Shown here: positions 57,813 to 64,000 of the stretch, piece by piece
Numbering within the stretch: position 1 is the first letter of the stretch
Layout of the letters: every line of letters begins with the position of its first letter
Origin: Escherichia coli
GTDB lineage: Bacteria > Pseudomonadota > Gammaproteobacteria > Enterobacterales > Enterobacteriaceae
Direction: 5' to 3' (one strand)
Assembly (NCBI GenBank): GCA_902500005.1
Contig: GCA_902500005.1_3678.1
Length of the DNA: 64,000 nt
Notes under the pieces: generated by a model
Told to the model about the DNA's origin: nothing
What the model saw: the letters and a program-made list of their open reading frames with translations, nothing else
Database searches by the model: none
Translations under genes and position numbers: made by a program

Positions 57813-58058
57813 ATGAACAAAGGGTGGACATTTGTAGACGGCGTTAAAAACATGCCTCTAGGAAAGTATATTGTAGCCATGGCAGATGAGAATGGCAAGG
57901 TTGATTTCGGAGTTTGCGAGGTTGTTCTTGCAGGATCTGGTGACTATGCTCACAAAACTGGGATAATTAACGGTCATTTCTACTTTGATTACAACCCTGT
58001 TGTGGCGTATATGGCTATGCCAGAGTTCGAGCTCCCAAAGGAAGGTGCAGATGTTTAA
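57813..58058 (+). CDS. hypothetical protein (81 aa)
   Basis: ATG after AGGAG. Confidence 0.4.
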   Translation: MNKGWTFVDGVKNMPLGKYIVAMADENGKVDFGVCEVVLAGSGDYAHKTGIINGHFYFDYNPVVAYMAMPEFELPKEGADV

Positions 58059-58248
58059 GCTTAAATCTGCATGGAACATCGCTGTGGGGGACGAGATCCG
58101 TATCCCAGGTGGAAAGACCATTATGAAAATATCTCGTATCGAGTACGAAGGTGATCGTGTATTTCATATCTTTGCAGAAGATGGTCGAGAAATTTATATA
58201 CAGGCAGGCTCTCACATCTATATTCGTAAGAAAGGGGAGGACAAATGA
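58051..58248 (+). CDS. hypothetical protein (65 aa)
   Basis: ATG after AAGGAAGG; overlaps upstream stop. Confidence 0.35.
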   Translation: MFKLKSAWNIAVGDEIRIPGGKTIMKISRIEYEGDRVFHIFAEDGREIYIQAGSHIYIRKKGEDK

Positions 58249-58574
58249 CAGAGATCATCATTTCAACTGCAGGGTATGTATTCCTGACAATCATTGCGCT
58301 GGCTATTCTGGTGGCGGTGTATGGATTTGTTATCCTTCCTATTCTTGAGACATTTAGTTTGTGTCGGTGTTGGAGAAAAGCTTACGGTCCACAACCATGG
58401 AAGGACTGGCCCCACCTGGTGCGCTTAGCGTTCTCTTATGCTTACGATCACTCCAGTAGTGCATGCATAACCGGATACCACGCCCACAACTGGAGCTGGG
58501 AAGGGTTGAGGAAATGGAATGTTACAAAGACCATACCTCTGCGCATGTACAAACCTAAAAACAAAGACAACTGA
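58245..58574 (+). CDS. small membrane protein (109 aa)
   Basis: ATG after AGGGGAGG; hydrophobic segment YVFLTIIALAILVAVYGFVILPIL. Confidence 0.4.
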   Translation: MTEIIISTAGYVFLTIIALAILVAVYGFVILPILETFSLCRCWRKAYGPQPWKDWPHLVRLAFSYAYDHSSSACITGYHAHNWSWEGLRKWNVTKTIPLRMYKPKNKDN

Positions 58575-58599
58575 TACTTGAAAATTCCTGGCATATCAA

Positions 58600-59110
58600 G
58601 TATAAGGGGGATTTCTAAAATGGATTTCCTCCTTTTGATATTTCACCGGGCTGGATATTTTAAAATTCTTAGAAAATCAGAAAATGGATCGAAAACTAAA
58701 ATGGATTTTTCAGAGTAGGCGCGACAAGCTGAATAACTCATCCTATCGTTTGCACCATATTCCAGACCACCATTATAGATTTCCCACACATGCTAACCTC
58801 CCTCTACTAGAACTTCCTCCACTTACCCTTGACCTTCTATGGTAACAATCTAACCACTATCTTGAAGTTGCGGTGCAGCTTTCCAGGTACTCGATCTACT
58901 TTTCATTTCAGGGCTTGGATTTTCTGAAAATTTTTCTCGATAAATTTCTCAGTACTCGATCTGTTTTTCGTTTTCTGAATCGGATTTTCTGGAAATCGTT
59001 CCGGATCTCGACCTGAAATTTTTGGGGACGAAATCTATTTTTCGTTTTCAGAAATGGATTTTTAAAATTTCTATATGGGAATATTTTATGGGGCACTGTT
59101 TTATAGGAAA
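58600..59110. repeat. ORF-poor AT-rich region with iteron-like direct repeats
   Basis: ~22-nt unit tactcgatct(a/g)ttttc(a/g)ttt at 58888 and 58953 (related copy 59030); 15-nt unit ggattttctg(a/g)aaat at 58917 and 58982; (a)aaatggat variants at 58617, 58681, 58697, 59052. Confidence 0.55.
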
Positions 59111-59206
59111 TTGTTACGGAGGGTAATTAGCATGCTAATTAAATTTATTAAATGCGAGGGATTCTTATTTAGAATTTTGAATGATAATTATTCTCGTTTG
59201 CAGAAT

Positions 59207-59386
59207 AACGGGCAGGCCCGGTGATTGTCTCCCGGCCCCTGCTGCCCCGGCTTGTTATTATAGTATCACACAGGACAAAGAAGGCAAGGATTTTTTGCAT
59301 AAATTTTTAAATGATAATGATAACCGTTCTCATTTTATGAAGCGCCCATCCCCGGTGGTTGTCTCCCCCGTCACCGGTGCCTGCCG
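59207..59386. repeat. GC-rich repeat elements (two direct copies); inverted copy at 63888-63931
   Basis: ggcaggcccggtgattgtctccc (59207) and ccggtggttgtctcccccgtcaccggtgcctgcc (59350); reverse complement at 63890-63931. Confidence 0.5.
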
Positions 59387-59539
59387 TCCTTTCGATAGGT
59401 ATATTATGCCGCCTGGCGGGGCCGCTGTCAACACTTTTCAAAAAATTTTTCTAACCTGATGCGCTAACCGTTGCAACCTGGCGGGGCCAGCCTGGCAGGT
59501 CCGCACTATAAAGTAAACAGCTACAGAAGAGGTACAAAA

Positions 59540-59713
59540 ATGAAAGGTAATGCTACTCGCCTGGGAAATGTAGTGATTAATGATACGGAAGCTATCGCCC
59601 TGGTTGAAAAGGTTATGGCGGGAGCGTTGGAACATAAAGAAGAGTACGAAAAAATGGTGGTTAACCTGGCGGGGGCGGCAGGTGGATTCTATCATAAAAA
59701 TAATTTAAAATAG
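59540..59713 (+). CDS. hypothetical protein (57 aa)
   Basis: ATG after AGAAGAGG; track start 59471 lies in repeat region. Confidence 0.35.
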   Translation: MKGNATRLGNVVINDTEAIALVEKVMAGALEHKEEYEKMVVNLAGAAGGFYHKNNLK

Positions 59714-59716
59714 TCG

Positions 59717-59744
59717 TTGACAACAAGGTTAATCATGGTATTAT
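59717..59744 (+). promoter_or_regulatory. sigma70-like promoter
   Basis: TTGACA-16 nt-TATTAT. Confidence 0.5.
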
Positions 59745-59794
59745 TACCCTACAAGGTGAACAACACCGCACTAACCAGTAAAGAGGATAAATTT

Positions 59795-59992
59795 ATGAAC
59801 GCATACGGGATCAAAGTACGTCGCAACACTCGCCAGGTGGTCACCAATCAAGTGATTTGCCGGGTGGATGTAACCATCAACAACGGGCAAGGCCTTTATA
59901 AATTTCGTCGCGGTCATAGCTATACCCTGCAACAGCTTAATCGTTGCGCCCTGACAAAAGGTCAGATCAACCACTGGTTTAATAAAAAATAA
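59795..59992 (+). CDS. hypothetical protein (65 aa)
   Basis: ATG after AAGAGGA; track start 59717 is TTG of the -35 element. Confidence 0.4.
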   Translation: MNAYGIKVRRNTRQVVTNQVICRVDVTINNGQGLYKFRRGHSYTLQQLNRCALTKGQINHWFNKK

Positions 59993-59995
59993 GTA

Positions 59996-60024
59996 TTGAC
60001 ATACAGTCCGACACCAAATACACT
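59996..60024 (+). promoter_or_regulatory. sigma70-like promoter
   Basis: TTGACA-17 nt-TACACT. Confidence 0.5.
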
Positions 60025-60056
60025 AAAAGCACAAAAGACACTAAGAGGATAAAATC

Positions 60057-60455
60057 ATGAAAACCACTACCTTTAATTTTGATAATGCAGACTTTTCTTT
60101 TTCTGATGTCAAGAACTGCCGCCGTGATCGTGGATTTTACAAGGCTTATAATCTGGTGGGCCTGGACGATGACAATAATTTGCACGAAGTAGCTGAGATC
60201 CGGTATTATGCCGCCGCCAGCGGGAACACTCACTACTGCGTGTTTTGGATTCACGACAACAAGAACAATAAGTACGGTTATACTGGCGGCAAGGCGAGCG
60301 GTCACGGTTACGATAAAGCTAACGCAGCACTTGAGAGCGCATTAAATGCTATGGGGATCACTGCCGACGGCTGGATCTACGAAGAAGAGTTTTTGTCGGC
60401 ACTTGCTGACCACCTGGGCTATAAAAAACACATTGTAACATGCGCCCACGAATAA
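60057..60455 (+). CDS. hypothetical protein (132 aa)
   Basis: ATG after AAGAGGA. Confidence 0.45.
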   Translation: MKTTTFNFDNADFSFSDVKNCRRDRGFYKAYNLVGLDDDNNLHEVAEIRYYAAASGNTHYCVFWIHDNKNNKYGYTGGKASGHGYDKANAALESALNAMGITADGWIYEEEFLSALADHLGYKKHIVTCAHE

Positions 60456-60461
60456 AAATCA

Positions 60462-60489
60462 TTGACACGCTGCAAAATTTAAGTAAACT
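60462..60489 (+). promoter_or_regulatory. sigma70-like promoter
   Basis: TTGACA-16 nt-TAAACT; followed by leader hairpin ggcgggaatgtttcccgcc. Confidence 0.5.
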
Positions 60490-60537
60490 AGACACAAAAG
60501 GCGGGAATGTTTCCCGCCAGCACAAAGGAAAAAGATC

Positions 60538-60933
60538 ATGAATAAGAACGTACGCCGCATCATGAACGAACTGGCAAACGATGAAAAAATTATTGATATG
60601 CATTTGGTCAACATTTGCCGCCGTTGTGTAACATATAACAACCGCGCCGCAAAAGCGCGTGAGATGAACGCAAAAGGCACCTTAAAGCCCTTTCAGGTGG
60701 TTGTAAAATCTATAACTAGCGCAGCAGGCCAGGCGCAGGACCACAACAACGAGAGCGCTAATATTGATCCGTCTTACGTAATGAAACGGATCCGGACTTG
60801 CAAGAATAAAGAGCAGGTATATAACGTCATAGATTGGCTGGACTCCCTGGGCGATGTGGTTTACAATAGGTTTTCTGCAGCTATCGAGATCCAGCTTGAC
60901 AGATTGGACGGGAAAGTACTAAAAACTTATTGA
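60538..60933 (+). CDS. hypothetical protein (131 aa)
   Basis: ATG after AAGGAAAAAG. Confidence 0.45.
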   Translation: MNKNVRRIMNELANDEKIIDMHLVNICRRCVTYNNRAAKAREMNAKGTLKPFQVVVKSITSAAGQAQDHNNESANIDPSYVMKRIRTCKNKEQVYNVIDWLDSLGDVVYNRFSAAIEIQLDRLDGKVLKTY

Positions 60934-60951
60934 GTTTATTTTTAGATGGCC

Positions 60952-60981
60952 TTGACACCAGGGCCATCAATAAAGTAAACT
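60952..60981 (+). promoter_or_regulatory. sigma70-like promoter inside a palindrome (copy 1 of a 45-bp direct repeat)
   Basis: ATGGCC-TTGACACCAG-GGCCAT; -10 TAAACT; 45-bp repeat 60936-60980 = 61557-61601. Confidence 0.5.
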
Positions 60982-61013
60982 AACCACAGTTGAGCGGAAA
61001 AGGAGGCTTAAAG

Positions 61014-61133
61014 ATGAGCACTACACGCCAGCACACAAAGGTAACCATCATCGTTTGCATCATTGGGTACATCCTGGCGCAAATGTTGATGGGTAGCGCC
61101 AACGGTGTCGCAAAATTTTTCTTAAACTTTTAA
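61014..61133 (+). CDS. small hydrophobic protein (39 aa)
   Basis: ATG 7 nt after AAGGAGG; not in ORF track (below its size cutoff); predicted TM segment. Confidence 0.3.
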   Translation: MSTTRQHTKVTIIVCIIGYILAQMLMGSANGVAKFFLNF

Positions 61134-61161
61134 TTGACAAGCTAACTTAAATCGATATAAT
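61134..61161 (+). promoter_or_regulatory. sigma70-like promoter (consensus)
   Basis: TTGACA-16 nt-TATAAT. Confidence 0.55.
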
Positions 61162-61212
61162 AAGCACATAAACGGGAAAACTTCCCAGAACACACAAAAG
61201 GAGAAAAACACC

Positions 61213-61554
61213 ATGACTACTATGACCGCCTCAGAAAAAGCTATGCAGATCGCTGAACTGAAAAAACAGATCGCAGACCTTGAGAATAAGATCGATAACT
61301 TTGAAATCGACGAGGACAAGTACGACGAAAACTATGATGAATGGTTAGACGAGATCTACGGCGAAATTATGATCGGAAACATTTCTTTTCTTCCGTCGCG
61401 TATCCTCAAGGAGCTAGATCCTATCGCTTACCGCTGCGGATTTAGCGACTACATCGACAGCCTGGATATTGAGGACGATGAAGAATACCAGGAATTACAG
61501 ACAGAGTTAGAAGAAGCAAAAGAAGAGCTTGCGGAGCTGGAAGAAAACGAGTAA
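61213..61554 (+). CDS. highly acidic coiled-coil protein (113 aa)
   Basis: ATG after AAGGAG; Asp/Glu-rich (…DEDKYDENYDEWLDEIYGE…DIEDDEEYQELQTELEEAKEELAELEENE). Confidence 0.45.
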   Translation: MTTMTASEKAMQIAELKKQIADLENKIDNFEIDEDKYDENYDEWLDEIYGEIMIGNISFLPSRILKELDPIAYRCGFSDYIDSLDIEDDEEYQELQTELEEAKEELAELEENE

Positions 61555-61572
61555 GCTTATTTTTAGATGGCC

Positions 61573-61602
61573 TTGACACCAGGGCCATCAATAAAGTAAA
61601 CT
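61573..61602 (+). promoter_or_regulatory. sigma70-like promoter inside a palindrome (copy 2 of the 45-bp direct repeat)
   Basis: Identical to 60936-60980 element. Confidence 0.5.
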
Positions 61603-61643
61603 TTATACTGTTAACACTGAACTAATGCATAGGAGTTAAAACC

Positions 61644-61889
61644 ATGGCAGCACTAATCACCAAATATTATGCCCCTACCAACACCAAAAGCGCCCGTATC
61701 ATGGTAAAAGGCTTCGGACGTAAAAAGGTGTACACCTGGGATTATGCCTTAGACACGGAAGACAACTACACCAACGCAATGACCGATTTTATTAATGAAC
61801 TAAATAAGCAGATCTTGACAAGTTATAAAGTGACCGATATTGCTTATATAGGTGAAGGCGGGATCTGTTTTGTAGGCATTGTGAAATAG
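61644..61889 (+). CDS. hypothetical protein (81 aa)
   Basis: ATG after TAGGAG. Confidence 0.45.
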   Translation: MAALITKYYAPTNTKSARIMVKGFGRKKVYTWDYALDTEDNYTNAMTDFINELNKQILTSYKVTDIAYIGEGGICFVGIVK

Positions 61890-61963
61890 TTATTTTTTCG
61901 GTGGTCCTGGTTGCAGGGCCATCTATAAAGATAATTTATTAACACCATGAAAGGAGAAAGTAC

Positions 61964-62317
61964 ATGATCAGCGGGGCAAGTTTTATTATTGGCGCTATTG
62001 CTACGGCTTTAATTGTAAATAAGATCCAGGATAAAAAGGAAAGAGGAAGTACCGCCCTTGCAGAATATCCATTTTGGGCATTCAACGATAACGAAGATTA
62101 TATTATAAAGTATAAAAATAAAGAAGGTGACCAAGTAACACCGCGACCGATCCCGGCTTACAAAATGCAGGAAACACTATACCGCCTGGAGGCGGGGGGC
62201 GCAAAAATTGTAGACTTTTGGGGATACGACCACACAGATCAGGAAGTTATAAAGCGCCGTATCCGGGCTATTCAGGCCAATATTGAAGTTAGCAAGGGGG
62301 GAATATATGAAAATTAA
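61964..62317 (+). CDS. hypothetical protein with N-terminal TM segment (117 aa)
   Basis: ATG after AAAGGAGAAAG. Confidence 0.45.
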   Translation: MISGASFIIGAIATALIVNKIQDKKERGSTALAEYPFWAFNDNEDYIIKYKNKEGDQVTPRPIPAYKMQETLYRLEAGGAKIVDFWGYDHTDQEVIKRRIRAIQANIEVSKGGIYEN

Positions 62318-62504
62318 TTTCGAGAAAATTGTAAAGCGCCCTCATGATTCCGAAGAGCTGCCAGAACGCCGCCAGCGTAACAATAAACTGAATAAGCCAA
62401 AAAGGTTTGGGAAGATCTGGCGTAATCATTATGATCGTAAATTGCCCGGCCTACTTTTGGAACGTGAACGACAGGCAGAACGATACCGCCATAAAGACAA
62501 ATAA
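62307..62504 (+). CDS. basic hypothetical protein (65 aa)
   Basis: ATG after AAGGGGGG (track start 62283 is further upstream). Confidence 0.35.
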   Translation: MKINFEKIVKRPHDSEELPERRQRNNKLNKPKRFGKIWRNHYDRKLPGLLLERERQAERYRHKDK

Positions 62505-62510
62505 CAACCA

Positions 62511-62540
62511 ACGCCCCGCCATTGTGCGGGGCTTTTTATT
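62511..62540 (+). terminator. rho-independent terminator
   Basis: gccccgccattgtgcggggc + tttttatttc. Confidence 0.6.
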
Positions 62541-62661
62541 TCTATCCTACGAATAGCGCCCCTGGTTGGCCCTGTAAGCGCCAAAAAGGCCCCCACCTAT
62601 GCAATCGCCCCTTTAACCTGAAAACATCGCCCAGGGCCGTTTCATGGCGTTAAAAATATCA

Positions 62662-62689
62662 TTGACATCGTCAACAGGTTAGCTATACT
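62662..62689 (+). promoter_or_regulatory. sigma70-like promoter
   Basis: TTGACA-16 nt-TATACT. Confidence 0.5.
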
Positions 62690-62721
62690 AACCACATCAA
62701 AGAGAGAAAGGAGTAAACGCC

Positions 62722-62982
62722 ATGCGTAAATTAAAAAATTTTGATAAAGTTGATGTTATCCTGAATAATTTTTACTACTGCAACAACAAGGCTATTTGGT
62801 GGCGTGATAGTTCCACCGATAAAGTCAGGGCGCGCTTTCTTCAGGGGCACTGGCAAGGCCGCCCAGTGATTAAAATCATGGGGCAATTGGTAGCGTTTAA
62901 AAATTGCCGCCGTGTTGATGACGTTGAGGAGATTTTAAACATTTTGCGCCACAATAATTTAAAAAATAGTGTTGACAAGTAA
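62722..62982 (+). CDS. hypothetical protein (86 aa)
   Basis: ATG after AAAGGAG. Confidence 0.45.
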   Translation: MRKLKNFDKVDVILNNFYYCNNKAIWWRDSSTDKVRARFLQGHWQGRPVIKIMGQLVAFKNCRRVDDVEEILNILRHNNLKNSVDK

Positions 62983-62999
62983 GCCTCAATAAGTATACT
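62972..62999 (+). promoter_or_regulatory. sigma70-like promoter
   Basis: TTGACA-16 nt-TATACT; followed by leader hairpin ggcgggaaaacttcccgcc. Confidence 0.5.
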
Positions 63000-63056
63000 T
63001 AAACACACAGGCGGGAAAACTTCCCGCCACTAACAAAGAAAATAGGAGAAAATATC

Positions 63057-63194
63057 ATGACCACCGTTAACATTACCGCAGGTTACAATTTATCTTTCGA
63101 CGTGCTGACCGACGAACAAAAAGAAAAAGCCGTTGAAATGGTCCGCGAAAGAGAAGAACACAGCGGGGATAACTTTTTTGCAGAAAGAGGATAG
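63057..63194 (+). CDS. small acidic protein (45 aa)
   Basis: ATG after TAGGAG; not in ORF track (below its size cutoff). Confidence 0.3.
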   Translation: MTTVNITAGYNLSFDVLTDEQKEKAVEMVREREEHSGDNFFAERG

Positions 63195-63199
63195 ACACA

Positions 63200-63484
63200 A
63201 TGAAAAAGATGATCGCAGTAGTTGCCCTGGTTGTTGGACTTAATGCGCCTGTAATGGCTAAAGAGCTGGCAAAAGAGGTTGATCTAACGGATATCCATGC
63301 CGTCAATCAAATCGGGGTTACTTATCGCTTATGCCTTGCCGCTAAAACTTTTAATGACGGTACAACAGAGTACTACGGATTCGAGGGTATCCGGTGCGGT
63401 GAGCTTGCTCGCGACCTTAAGGAAGATCCAGACCTGGAGGATCTACCCATAACCGTGAACGGTAAAGCTTACGTTAACCGTTAA
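63200..63484 (+). CDS. secreted small protein with signal peptide (94 aa)
   Basis: MKKMIAVVALVVGLNAPVMA-KE: Sec-type signal with AxA-like site. Confidence 0.45.
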   Translation: MKKMIAVVALVVGLNAPVMAKELAKEVDLTDIHAVNQIGVTYRLCLAAKTFNDGTTEYYGFEGIRCGELARDLKEDPDLEDLPITVNGKAYVNR

Positions 63485-63633
63485 CCGTGAAAAAGATAAT
63501 CATTACCTTGGGGATTGTGGCGGGATCGCTGGCGCTCTTTCCCCTTATGGTTAGATATGTGCTGATCAGTATTGTCCTGGTGGTCAGTGATCTACTAGAA
63601 ACGGTTGGCACCTTGTTTTAAAGAGCGATAAAA

Positions 63634-63825
63634 ATGAATGTTGAACAAGTTAGAAAGGTATTGGCGGTACTGCGTTATCATAATCATAGAAAGGTCATAG
63701 ACGATCCTGATTATGTTGATTCAAGTCTGGAAGAGGATACACTACAAGCCATAAGTAACATGCAAGAATTGCTAAAGCGCATGACAGAGAAAAACCGACC
63801 GGACTACATAGGCGAAAAAATATAA
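63634..63825 (+). CDS. hypothetical protein (63 aa)
   Basis: ATG start. Confidence 0.4.
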   Translation: MNVEQVRKVLAVLRYHNHRKVIDDPDYVDSSLEEDTLQAISNMQELLKRMTEKNRPDYIGEKI

Positions 63826-63841
63826 TCCTTATTAACTAGAA

Positions 63842-63872
63842 AACAGGGCTTGCAATGGTCCTGTTTTTTGTT
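63842..63872 (+). terminator. rho-independent terminator
   Basis: acagggcttgcaatggtcctgt + tttttg. Confidence 0.5.
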
Positions 63873-63887
63873 ATACTTATTACACGG

Positions 63888-63931
63888 CAGGCACCTGGCG
63901 ACGGGGGGGGGGGAGACAATCACCGGGCCTG
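63888..63931. repeat. inverted copy of the 59.2-59.4 kb GC-rich element, containing a G11 homopolymer tract
   Basis: cggcaggcacctggcgacg-G11-agacaatcaccgggcctgcc is the reverse complement of the 59350/59207 elements; G-run 63903-63913. Confidence 0.5.
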
Positions 63932-63958
63932 CCTGTCATATAAGAACTATAAAAACCG

Positions 63959-63987
63959 TTGACATCTGCCAGGTGGTGGGGTAACAT
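63959..63987 (+). promoter_or_regulatory. sigma70-like promoter
   Basis: TTGACA-17 nt-TAACAT. Confidence 0.4.
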
Positions 63988-64000
63988 TTATCTTGAAGGG

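Follow-up and report, generated by a model that had tools for sequence, protein, structure and literature searches.

A repeated intercistronic RNA hairpin in the early ORFan region of rV5-like phages that appears to be built like T7 RNase III signals

The 64,000-nucleotide stretch of DNA analysed here (the window) belongs to a Vequintavirus, i.e., an rV5-like E. coli myovirus. Phages of this type see wide use as candidates for biocontrol and therapy; to our knowledge, their early region is an unannotated block of ORFans without a transcript map. The segment of interest, with all its features on the + strand, opens with a promoter (TTGACA-16-TAAACT, 60462-60489) and its 5′-proximal hairpin (60500-60518; whole element 60462..60518), followed by a 131-aa ORFan (60538..60933, phrog_13245, function unassigned) and the first of three copies of a 49-nt module (copy 1, 60933..60981). 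Next comes a 621-bp cassette (60982..61602) composed of a unique segment and one module copy, in which a 39-aa ORF (61014-61133), a consensus promoter (61134-61161), a 5′ hairpin (61173-61187), and a 113-aa ORF (61213-61554) precede module copy 2 (61554..61602). An 81-aa ORFan (61644..61889), which has homologues at 30-46% identity in unrelated phage groups, separates copy 2 from the diverged copy 3 (61888..61936), beyond which lie two overlapping ORFs of 117 aa (61964-62317) and 65 aa (62307-62504), the pair spanning 61964..62504. The 65-aa product is a homologue of T7 gene 1.1 (PF08200, 44.2 bits, cutoff 21), and all genes flanking the module are ORFans of unassigned function. An intrinsic terminator detected by a terminator scan (62513..62532, seven GC pairs followed by TTTTTATTT), whose counterpart carries a terminator annotation in both EdH4 and Alma, is likely the end of the polycistronic unit holding copies 2 and 3. 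All module copies sit in units delimited by upstream consensus promoters and this terminator, and transcripts from the predicted promoter at 60462-60489 would read through copy 1.

Copies 1 and 2 each open with the final base of a stop codon (TGA of ORF 60538-60933 and TAA of ORF 61213-61554), and copy 3 starts on the AG of the TAG stop of ORF 61644-61889, so that the module occupies an intercistronic position, starting at the stop codon of the upstream gene and reaching to 27-41 nt short of the next start codon. A sequence-only reading of this DNA had described a 45-bp promoter-operator unit duplicated exactly. The duplication is confirmed, with identity over 46 nt (60936-60981 and 61557-61602), and the repeat reaches 49 nt with one mismatch (60933-60981/61554-61602); the 24-nt palindrome core occurs twice, with 0 occurrences expected from 100 shuffles. 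A motif at 61895-61915 previously listed as related proved to belong to a true third copy, 71% identical in register and matched by the family covariance model with 69.3 bits (E 2.6e-13), the scores of copies 1 and 2 being 77 bits (41.5 on the − strand) and 74.1 bits, respectively. A second such motif, at 62558-62575 (cccctggttggccctg), was not borne out as a relative, as it has only an 8-mer in common with copy 3, gave no model match at E<=10 with filters off, and showed no comparable fold.

The element was found at the same loci in 121 records, with three to four copies per 136-kb genome, and the complete relative EdH4 has four copies and no more, each on the transcribed strand and all within a 4.4-kb stretch. 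A pattern scan of IMG/VR returned 67 loci, of which two were Vequintavirus contigs and the others single chance matches, while the matches listed in a metagenome pattern scan included one relevant contig, already in the set, and otherwise chance matches. A search of 58000-64000 with Rfam covariance models gave no match on the modules at E<=1. The motif ATAAAG(T/A)(A/T)AA was also considered as a separate phage-specific, T4-late-like promoter class and rejected; in the 64 kb it occurs only at the three modules and at 59508, where the extended hairpin is absent (z +0.46).

On the + strand, the module folds into a bipartite hairpin consisting of a 10-bp AU-rich lower stem, a 2x3 internal loop, a 10-bp GC-rich upper stem, and a tetraloop. 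In copy 1, the fold places the lower stem at 60933-60942/60972-60981, the internal loop at 60943-60944 and 60969-60971, the upper stem at 60945-60954/60959-60968, and the tetraloop ACAC at 60955-60958. The upper-stem arms, GATGGCCTTG and CAGGGCCATC, pair over 10 bp with one G·T included, and the lower stem is formed by the flanking T-rich tract paired with the A-rich tract, including the "−10" hexamer. The palindrome ATGGCC-N10-GGCCAT, which the sequence-only reading had taken as the whole symmetrical element, is indeed present, but constitutes only the upper part of this larger two-stem hairpin. Fold energies were −25.8 kcal/mol (z −5.67) for copy 1, −23.2 kcal/mol (z −5.21) for copy 2, and −24.4 kcal/mol on the + strand against −10.4 on the − strand for copy 3. 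The + strand folds of the three window copies resemble one another, at −23.2 to −25.8 kcal/mol with z between −4.8 and −5.7, and the − strand folds are far weaker, a preference also observed in 21 distinct copies from 15 genomes or contigs, with a strand contrast of −19.6 to −26.2 (+) versus −8.1 to −16.3 kcal/mol (−).

Comparison of the copies points to the RNA hairpin as the selected core of the module; the hairpin is kept by compensatory changes and by wobble changes that pair on the + strand only. Of the 360 pair cells in 18 distinct copies, 98.3% are base-paired, compared with 36-56% in a slid-partner control, the shuffle control on pairing taking no account of the relatedness of the copies. 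The upper stem is 100% paired in these copies, its four variable pairs are all wobble (G·U), and since a G·U on the + strand is an A·C on the − strand, this pairing is strand-specific; the covariance model scores ~35 bits higher on + than on −. In the lower stem, four pairs have changed on both sides (G-C>A-U, U-A>C-G, U-A>A-U/G·U, and A-U>U-A). Copy 3, which differs at 14 of 49 positions and has a GUUG tetraloop, retains the hairpin with 20 of 20 pairs by means of G·U pairs and a swapped UA/AU pair. Changes within subfamilies are compensated as well, namely in rV5, ev156, phiWec189, and L088 variants, the covariation as a whole stemming from few independent substitution events (two subfamilies plus a few within-subfamily changes). 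The 3′ arm and the ATAAAG motif ("NAUAAAG") are conserved beyond pairing needs, the right arm being near-invariant across all copies, which could reflect a sequence-specific protein contact or a gene-conversion tract.

The σ70-like hexamers reported earlier in both exact copies were found as described, with TTGACA and TAAACT separated by 18 nt and 10/12 consensus matches (60952-60957 and 60976-60981 in copy 1, together 60952..60981; 61573-61578 and 61597-61602 in copy 2). Across copies 1, 2, and 4, the pattern is TTGAC(A/T)-18-TAAA(C/T)T with 9-10/12 matches and a suboptimal spacer; the pair is kept in 14/14 variants of these copies, and an AT-rich tract lies at about −44 to −53. Judged from these motifs, promoter activity of copies 1 and 2 and of the fourth copy of relatives is plausible, and with a predicted start near 60988 the copy 1 promoter would yield a transcript without the hairpin. 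In copy 3, a usable −35/−10 is absent in 7/7 variants and the window copy was not flagged by the promoter scan, so the genes that follow need read-through across the hairpin. Because copy 3 keeps the whole hairpin without these boxes, it is the hairpin, rather than a promoter-operator pair, that is shared and conserved across the family. The 33 promoters listed in the rV5 genome paper do not include the module. An apparent loss of the copy 1 promoter in L088, where two 1-nt insertions give a spacer of 20, was discarded on account of an alternative TTGATA-15-TAAAAT. A role of the module as an intrinsic terminator was likewise rejected: on both strands the hairpin has a T-rich tract 5′ and an A-rich tract 3′, no U tract follows it on either strand (3′ flank AAUAAAG), and the terminator scan, which flags 62513, does not flag the modules.

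The near-identical copies are also substrates of homologous recombination, by which they are homogenised and the genes between them deleted or inserted. The 621-bp cassette, lost or gained via recombination of copy 1 with copy 2, is missing in magaca, ime, ECP26, phiWec189, and contig L042, which carry a hybrid junction made of the copy-1 left flank and the copy-2 right flank; this cassette-less junction is found on at least three backgrounds, with loops ACAC, ACTC, and ACTT. Three loop variants segregate among genomes and evolve in concert, copies 1 and 2 carrying the same variant in 7/8 genomes. The lab-evolved phage rV5_ev146 does without copy 1, which is deleted along with the 131-aa ORFan, and has one module copy left; attribution of this loss to module recombination was rejected, as it is a microhomology deletion (CAGCACA..AAGG).

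A similar arrangement has been described as PeSL (promoter-early stem-loop) cassettes of T4-type phages, in papers that deal with T4-likes only (Arbiol et al. 2010, PMC2839356; Comeau et al. 2014, PMC4122927) and that demonstrated promoter, terminator, and mini-circle activities experimentally. One alternative is therefore that the module has the PeSL function only, i.e., that of an early σ70 promoter for the next gene with an insulating terminator or attenuator stem-loop and without RNA processing. The layout fits the published description element by element: a stop codon in AT-rich DNA, a σ70-like −35/−10, a stem-loop that contains G-T pairs and can overlap the −35 or −10, and the SD and ATG of a small ORFan, all repeated within a plastic early region. 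The module shares with PeSLs its intergenic placement, a stable stem-loop on promoter boxes, and recombination between flanking copies that removes or adds ORFans and leaves a chimeric copy, the junctions in magaca, ECP26, phiWec189, and L042 being the analogue of RB49/phi1 ORF192; the hexamers kept in copies 1, 2, and 4, the AT-rich tract upstream, and the observed cassette loss all agree with this reading. However, the module resides in Vequintavirinae rather than T4-like phages, numbers four copies per genome instead of about 50, and forms a 20-bp bipartite hairpin enclosing both hexamers in place of a short GGGG...CCCC stem. By sequence criteria it lacks a terminator signature, given the missing U tract and the silence of the terminator scan, and one of its copies is entirely without a promoter, leaving two downstream genes dependent on read-through. 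In addition, a simple attenuator needs neither the pairing of the "−10" with the upstream T tract in the lower stem nor the covariation seen there. Unlike PeSLs, the module shows covariation indicative of RNA-level selection. A PeSL role and nothing else is thus unlikely.

The T7 early signals R0.3, R0.5, R1, R1.1, and R1.3 are, like the module, a small family of sequence-related hairpins between early cistrons. Their positions, which we take to be those of Dunn & Studier 1983, agree with conserved hairpins seen in the folds, the RefSeq record being without annotation of them. The T7 sites lie in polycistronic early mRNA made by host RNA polymerase, and the module is counted alike; in both, the lower stem is AU-rich (8-10 bp), the internal loop asymmetric, the 10-bp upper stem GC-rich with wobbles, and the loop 4-5 nt long. 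Minor E. coli promoters and T7 promoters are found in the T7 record in the same intergenic gaps as the hairpins. The two differ in that sequence homology is absent, the internal loop is 2x3 in the module and about 4x5 in T7, and the T7 sites are not known as recombination cassettes. A loop or bulge at an RNase III target site limits cleavage to one strand, leaving a 3′ hairpin. According to the substrate rules of E. coli RNase III (Pertzev & Nicholson 2006, PMC1540722), the enzyme acts on a helix roughly two turns long, the cleavage site being 11 bp or more from the loop. The module provides 10 + 10 bp around its 2x3 loop, and this internal loop, at bp 11 counted down from the tetraloop, coincides with the expected position of the scissile bond, an arrangement also seen in the folded T7 hairpins. 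In the PMC1540722 register, the distal box at bp 2-3 under the loop is UA/UG in copies 1, 2, and 4 (U21-A28, U20·G29) and UA/CG in copy 3, like T7 R0.5, and the middle-box pairs are tolerated ones; the UA/UG doublet is a trait in common with the T7 signals. The proximal box, for which GC; AU/UA; AU; and AU/UA or a weak pair are preferred (PMC1540722), reads U-A, A-U, and G-C at bp 8-10 with bp 11 unpaired. Among its three paired positions pb2 is the sole fit, bp 10 being G-C instead of the preferred A-U; natural R1.1 likewise has an unpaired (weak) pb4, and natural substrates vary.

By analogy with these signals, and with moderate confidence, the module is regarded as a hairpin-forming RNA cassette that recurs between cistrons in the early ORFan region of Vequintavirus and works at the post-transcriptional level, its most likely role being that of a T7-type RNase III processing signal. 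Briefly, the hairpin would form in + strand polycistronic transcripts that read through it, and a cut in or beside the internal loop (11 bp below the tetraloop) would part the cistrons from one another, with the upper hairpin staying on the 3′ end of the upstream mRNA as a protective cap; even uncleaved, the hairpin could serve as a 3′-exonuclease barrier. The DNA of copies 1, 2, and 4 may double as a moderate σ70 promoter whose transcript begins just past the hairpin, which would make these copies composite PeSL-type promoter/stem-loop cassettes, and copy 3 a hairpin only. A literature search for Vequintavirus transcriptome, TSS map, 5′-end, cleavage, or rnc-dependence data found none. The same signs of RNA-level selection would equally suit a site for an RNA-binding protein (a translational or stability operator) or a passive 3′-exonuclease barrier in which RNase III takes no part, and the conservation of the 3′ arm and NAUAAAG past pairing needs and the imperfect proximal box lend this some weight. 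Nevertheless, we know of no candidate protein, the next ribosome-binding site lies 20-30 nt past the hairpin and is not sequestered, and the two-turn bipartite geometry, the bp-11 internal loop, and the UA/UG doublet are specifically RNase III-like, which renders such a role rather improbable.

The architecture stressed in the sequence-only reading, a GC-rich palindrome over the −35 bound by a dimeric phage or host repressor, fares worse. Its promoter half is plausible, given the σ70-like pair in all variants of copies 1, 2, and 4, and an inverted repeat across the −35 hexamer is what repressor operators of this kind display; the near-invariant right arm CAGGGCCATC is also compatible with a sequence-specific contact. 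The operator half is not supported. The imperfections of the symmetry are strand-asymmetric, all being G·U on + and A·C on −, as expected of RNA, and the symmetry continues into a second stem outside the palindrome whose compensatory changes a repressor site does not predict, while copy 3 keeps the "operator" without a promoter. Moreover, the proposal that the early genes share a regulator through this site finds no support: with three to four copies per genome and roughly ten stronger consensus promoters without the palindrome in the same region, the module is not a general early-gene control site, and no cognate regulator is known for it. The module is thus probably not a repressor-binding site, and control of its promoter by a dimeric repressor is very doubtful. 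A functionless repeat, i.e., duplication and recombination relics held alike by gene conversion with a hairpin inherited from an ancestral palindrome, would account for the concerted evolution, the inter-copy recombination, and the laboratory deletion of copy 1, but is made extremely improbable by the intact pairs of the heavily changed copy 3, the compensated within-subfamily changes, and the occupation of the same loci in 121 records.

Returning to the favoured RNase III-type reading, a more speculative extension can be put forward, which we hold only tentatively and consider rather unlikely as a whole: the 49 nt may be a dual-use, self-insulating cassette boundary, acting as a promoter in DNA form and, in RNA that comes from upstream, as an RNase III-type cut-and-cap hairpin that would end the incoming message where the new one starts, with translation-coupled processing and a portable recombination joint that carries ORFans in and out. 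A ribosome terminating at the stop codon, on which the lower stem begins, would melt that stem, and processing would then depend on translation of the upstream gene. If true, an unrelated phage lineage would have arrived anew at a PeSL-like system in which an RNA-processing module takes the place of the terminator.

Taken together, the inter-gene repeat appears to be an RNA structure under selection, built like the T7 RNase III signals, and not a repressor site. As both underlying concepts, PeSLs and T7 RNase III sites, were already known, the advance is incremental and not a surprise. It extends the PeSL idea of regulatory repeats as gene-shuffling joints beyond T4-like phages, and the module accounts for why a two-gene cassette is present in some sequenced isolates and absent from others. 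For the engineering of rV5-like phages, it marks safe insertion and deletion points, and for their biology, it offers a testable handle on the organisation of early polycistronic mRNAs.

The exact duplication claimed in the sequence-only reading holds over 46 nt (60936-60981 and 61557-61602), with a 24-nt core present twice against zero expected, and allowing one mismatch widens the repeat (family D1) to 60933-60981 and 61554-61602, referred to as copies 1 and 2 of a 49-nt intercistronic module. The related motif noticed near 61895 proved to be a true third copy (61888-61936, + strand), 71% identical in register; a covariance model made from the module family scores it at 69.3 bits (E 2.6e-13). 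The one reported at 62558-62575 is unrelated, without a match in a filter-free scan of all 64 kb with this model at E<=10, which returned the three copies and nothing else. Over 60000-63188 the sequence shares 99.9% identity with Escherichia phage EdH4 and 95-99% with many further Vequintavirus genomes; the rV5-like myoviruses of this group have genomes of ~136 kb. EdH4, a complete relative, carries exactly four copies, all inside 4.4 kb and on the transcribed strand, copy 4 lying past the end of the window. BLAST confined the element to Vequintavirus (121 records), typically at three BLAST-detectable places plus the diverged copy 3. No annotation of it was found in the inspected GenBank records, including rV5, no description in these records or the rV5 genome paper, and no family in Rfam; the rV5 authors' promoter list for this stretch comprises P195A/B, P192, and P186.

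The 5′ end of every copy coincides with the final base or final two bases of a stop codon (TGA, 60931-60933; TAA, 61552-61554; TAG, 61887-61889 for copies 1 to 3), and 27-41 nt separate its 3′ end from the following start codon, which is served by a Shine-Dalgarno sequence of its own. The + strand RNA adopts the same fold in all three window copies, with a 10-bp lower stem (AGUUUAUUUU / AAAGUAAACU) in which the "-10" pairs with an upstream T tract, an internal loop of 2 x 3 nt, a 10-bp upper stem (GAUGGCCUUG / CAGGGCCAUC), and a tetraloop. The palindrome described earlier is present, but as the top of this larger hairpin rather than its full extent. Fold energies of the + strand range from -23.2 to -25.8 kcal/mol (z -4.8 to -5.7), while the - strand folds much more poorly (copy 3: -10.4 versus -24.4 kcal/mol).

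The survey of variation took in 39 copies, 21 of them distinct, gathered from 15 genomes or contigs of Vequintavirus and representing few independent substitution events, namely two subfamilies and a handful of changes within them. Standard pairs occupy 98.3% of 360 pair cells in an alignment of 18 distinct copies, and sliding the 3′ partner by 1-3 columns lowers this share to 36-56% (the shuffle control for pairing makes no correction for relatedness). Two-sided changes were observed at four lower-stem pairs (G-C to A-U; U-A to C-G; U-A to A-U or G·U; A-U to U-A), and the upper stem is 100% paired, its four variable pairs going to wobble only. Departures from Watson-Crick pairing comprise 51 cells with G·U on the + strand, which on the - strand would be A·C, and four with the reverse, the latter confined to the last three pairs beside the stop codon. 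Across the 21 distinct copies, fold energies lie between -19.6 and -26.2 kcal/mol on the + strand and between -8.1 and -16.3 on the - strand. Most other variation sits in the tetraloop, which is ACAC, ACUC, or ACUU in copies 1, 2, and 4 and GUUG, GUAG, GCUG, or GUAA in copy 3.

The hexamers TTGAC(A/T)-18(19)-TAAA(C/T)T are kept in every variant of copies 1, 2, and 4, one divergent copy having TTGATA-15-TAAAAT, and no usable hexamer pair was found in copy-3 variants. Because pairing is kept in all copies and hexamers only in copies 1, 2, and 4, the sense-strand hairpin appears to be the family-wide constraint and the promoter an extra feature of one subfamily. For that subfamily, it is an even call whether the DNA also acts as a promoter, predicted to be moderate, with the transcript start just past the element. 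The proposal that ATGGCC-N10-GGCCAT over the -35 TTGACA is a repressor operator shared by early genes is very improbable, as the symmetry is strand-specific and RNA-like, runs on into a second, covarying stem, stays in copy 3 without a promoter, and is missing from stronger early promoters nearby. Near-consensus sigma70 promoters are crowded in the module region (23 promoter-like sites versus 11.9 expected), and nine of these sites lie on the + strand and have a perfect TTGACA.

That the module acts in some way at the RNA level is highly probable. According to the rV5 paper, the rightward small-gene block around the modules is one transcription unit of mostly unknown ORFs, and every gene neighbouring the modules is an ORFan; a literature search found no transcript data for rV5-like phages. 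Transcripts from upstream consensus promoters (60462; 61134) would run through the modules to a terminator at 62513, with the module folding within these read-through RNAs. We infer a processing and stability element, in which host RNase III would most probably cut at the internal loop and leave each upstream cistron ending in a GC-rich hairpin; the choice of this particular enzyme is tentative. Since the lower stem begins on the stop codon, it would presumably be opened for a short time by a ribosome terminating there.

When folded, the early intergenic gaps of T7 gave hairpins built like the module. In the R0.5 processing signal, for instance, the lower stem is AU-rich and 8 bp long, the internal loop is asymmetric, the upper stem is GC-rich with 10 bp that include wobble pairs, and the loop has 5 nt. 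Typical substrates of E. coli RNase III are two helical turns long, and three elements within 11 bp specify the target site, namely a distal box (UA, UG), a middle box, and a proximal box of 4 bp; internal loops limit cleavage to one strand, leaving a protective 3′ hairpin (Pertzev & Nicholson, PMC1540722). The register was checked on the T7 R1.1 signal, whose fold gives the numbering of that paper (middle box U12:G27 and C13:G26). Below the module loop, pairs 2-3 agree with the distal box in copies 1, 2, and 4 (U-A, U·G), and copy 3 has U-A/C-G at these positions, the same as R0.5. Pairs 5-6 (C-G, G-C) are tolerated in the middle box, pairs 8-10 (U-A, A-U, G-C) match one of three preferred proximal pairs, and the expected scissile bond at bp 11 falls inside the internal loop. 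The fit to the substrate rules is thus good in architecture and partial in sequence, cleavage being a prediction. The 65-aa product of 62307-62504 matches Pfam PF08200 (T7 gene 1.1 protein; 44.2 bits, cutoff 21) and is a T7 early gene homologue within the rV5-like early region. In T7, gene 1.1 lies just downstream of the R1.1 site.

Comparative data also show, at the level of genome sequence, a role of the modules in recombination. In magaca, ime, ECP26, phiWec189, and a metagenomic contig (L042), the homologue of 60538-60933 runs directly to that of 61644-61889 through a single module with the left flank of copy 1 and the right flank of copy 2; missing is the 621-bp segment with the 39-aa ORF, a consensus promoter, and the 113-aa ORF. 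Three loop variants occur at these junctions (ACAC, ACTC, ACTT), each the same as in full-length relatives, and therefore the exchange was either repeated or spread by recombination. In seven of eight genomes, copies 1 and 2 have one loop variant in common, the three variants segregating between genomes, a pattern of concerted evolution. The 81-aa ORFan between copies 2 and 3 (61644-61889) has 30-46% identical homologues in unrelated phages (Seuratvirus/Nonagvirus-type siphoviruses, Pseudomonas phages, and T7-like Klebsiella phages), which points to horizontal shuffling without the module. A microhomology deletion (CAGCACA..AAGG) in the lab-evolved rV5_ev146 (L198 2975-2990; window equivalent ~60520-61035), which arose independently of the modules, takes out the 131-aa gene, copy 1, and the first part of the 39-aa ORF, so that the phage can do without them in culture. 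The near-identity shared with EdH4 and other closest relatives ends at 63188, each of the best hits covering only 80% of the 60000-64000 query; the genes beyond this point differ, another plastic junction in the region.

In the promoter-early stem-loop (PeSL) cassettes of T4-type phages, an upstream stop codon lying in an AT-rich stretch is followed by a sigma70 early promoter and by a stem-loop that includes G-T pairs and can extend over the -35 or the -10; the Shine-Dalgarno sequence and the ATG of the ORFan come last. When flanking PeSLs recombine, ORFans are lost or gained and a chimeric PeSL is left behind (PMC2839356; PMC4122927). The module, its promoter read from sequence, fits this layout and behaviour, except that its hairpin lacks a terminator signature (no U tract on either strand), copy 3 has no promoter, and the phage is not T4-like. 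Short hairpins of the GGCGGGAAnnUUUCCCGCC type (60500-60518, 61173-61187, 63010-63028) lie 10-15 nt past the -10 of strong promoters, hence at the extreme 5′ end of transcripts, and resemble the PeSL subclass "downstream of the -10". The EdH4 and Alma records label them terminators; they have no U tract on the + strand and are more likely 5′ stabilising stem-loops.

Other elements were observed nearby. One occurs three times (63850-63940, +; 59431-59340, -; ~59300-59200, -), the two leftward copies and the rightward one together flanking a 4.6-kb block with the modules. It consists of a promoter-like site (TTGCAA-16-TATACT with TG; TTGACA-17-CATAAT) and, ~25 nt later, the conserved core GGGAGACAA(T/C)CACCGGG with a run of G in front of it (11 G at 63904-63914), and folds weakly (z -0.3 to -2.0). 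At 59506-59518, CTATAAAGTAAAC repeats the 3′ half of the module, just 3′ of a GC-rich palindrome and just 5′ of the gene that opens the rightward block (ATG 59541); this site has no extended hairpin or good -35 and could represent either a half-module relic or a signal of another kind. The ORF-poor stretch 58600-59100, with degenerate ~65 bp direct repeats (families D2, D4, D6), probably corresponds to what the rV5 map shows as a "non-coding" box and could be an origin or iteron-like region.

Conceptually, the module is a further case of two ideas already known, the PeSL-type shuffling cassette and the T7-type intercistronic processing hairpin, joined here within an unrelated lineage of phages. 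It carries little surprise, is directly testable, and is of use for annotating and engineering rV5-like phages.
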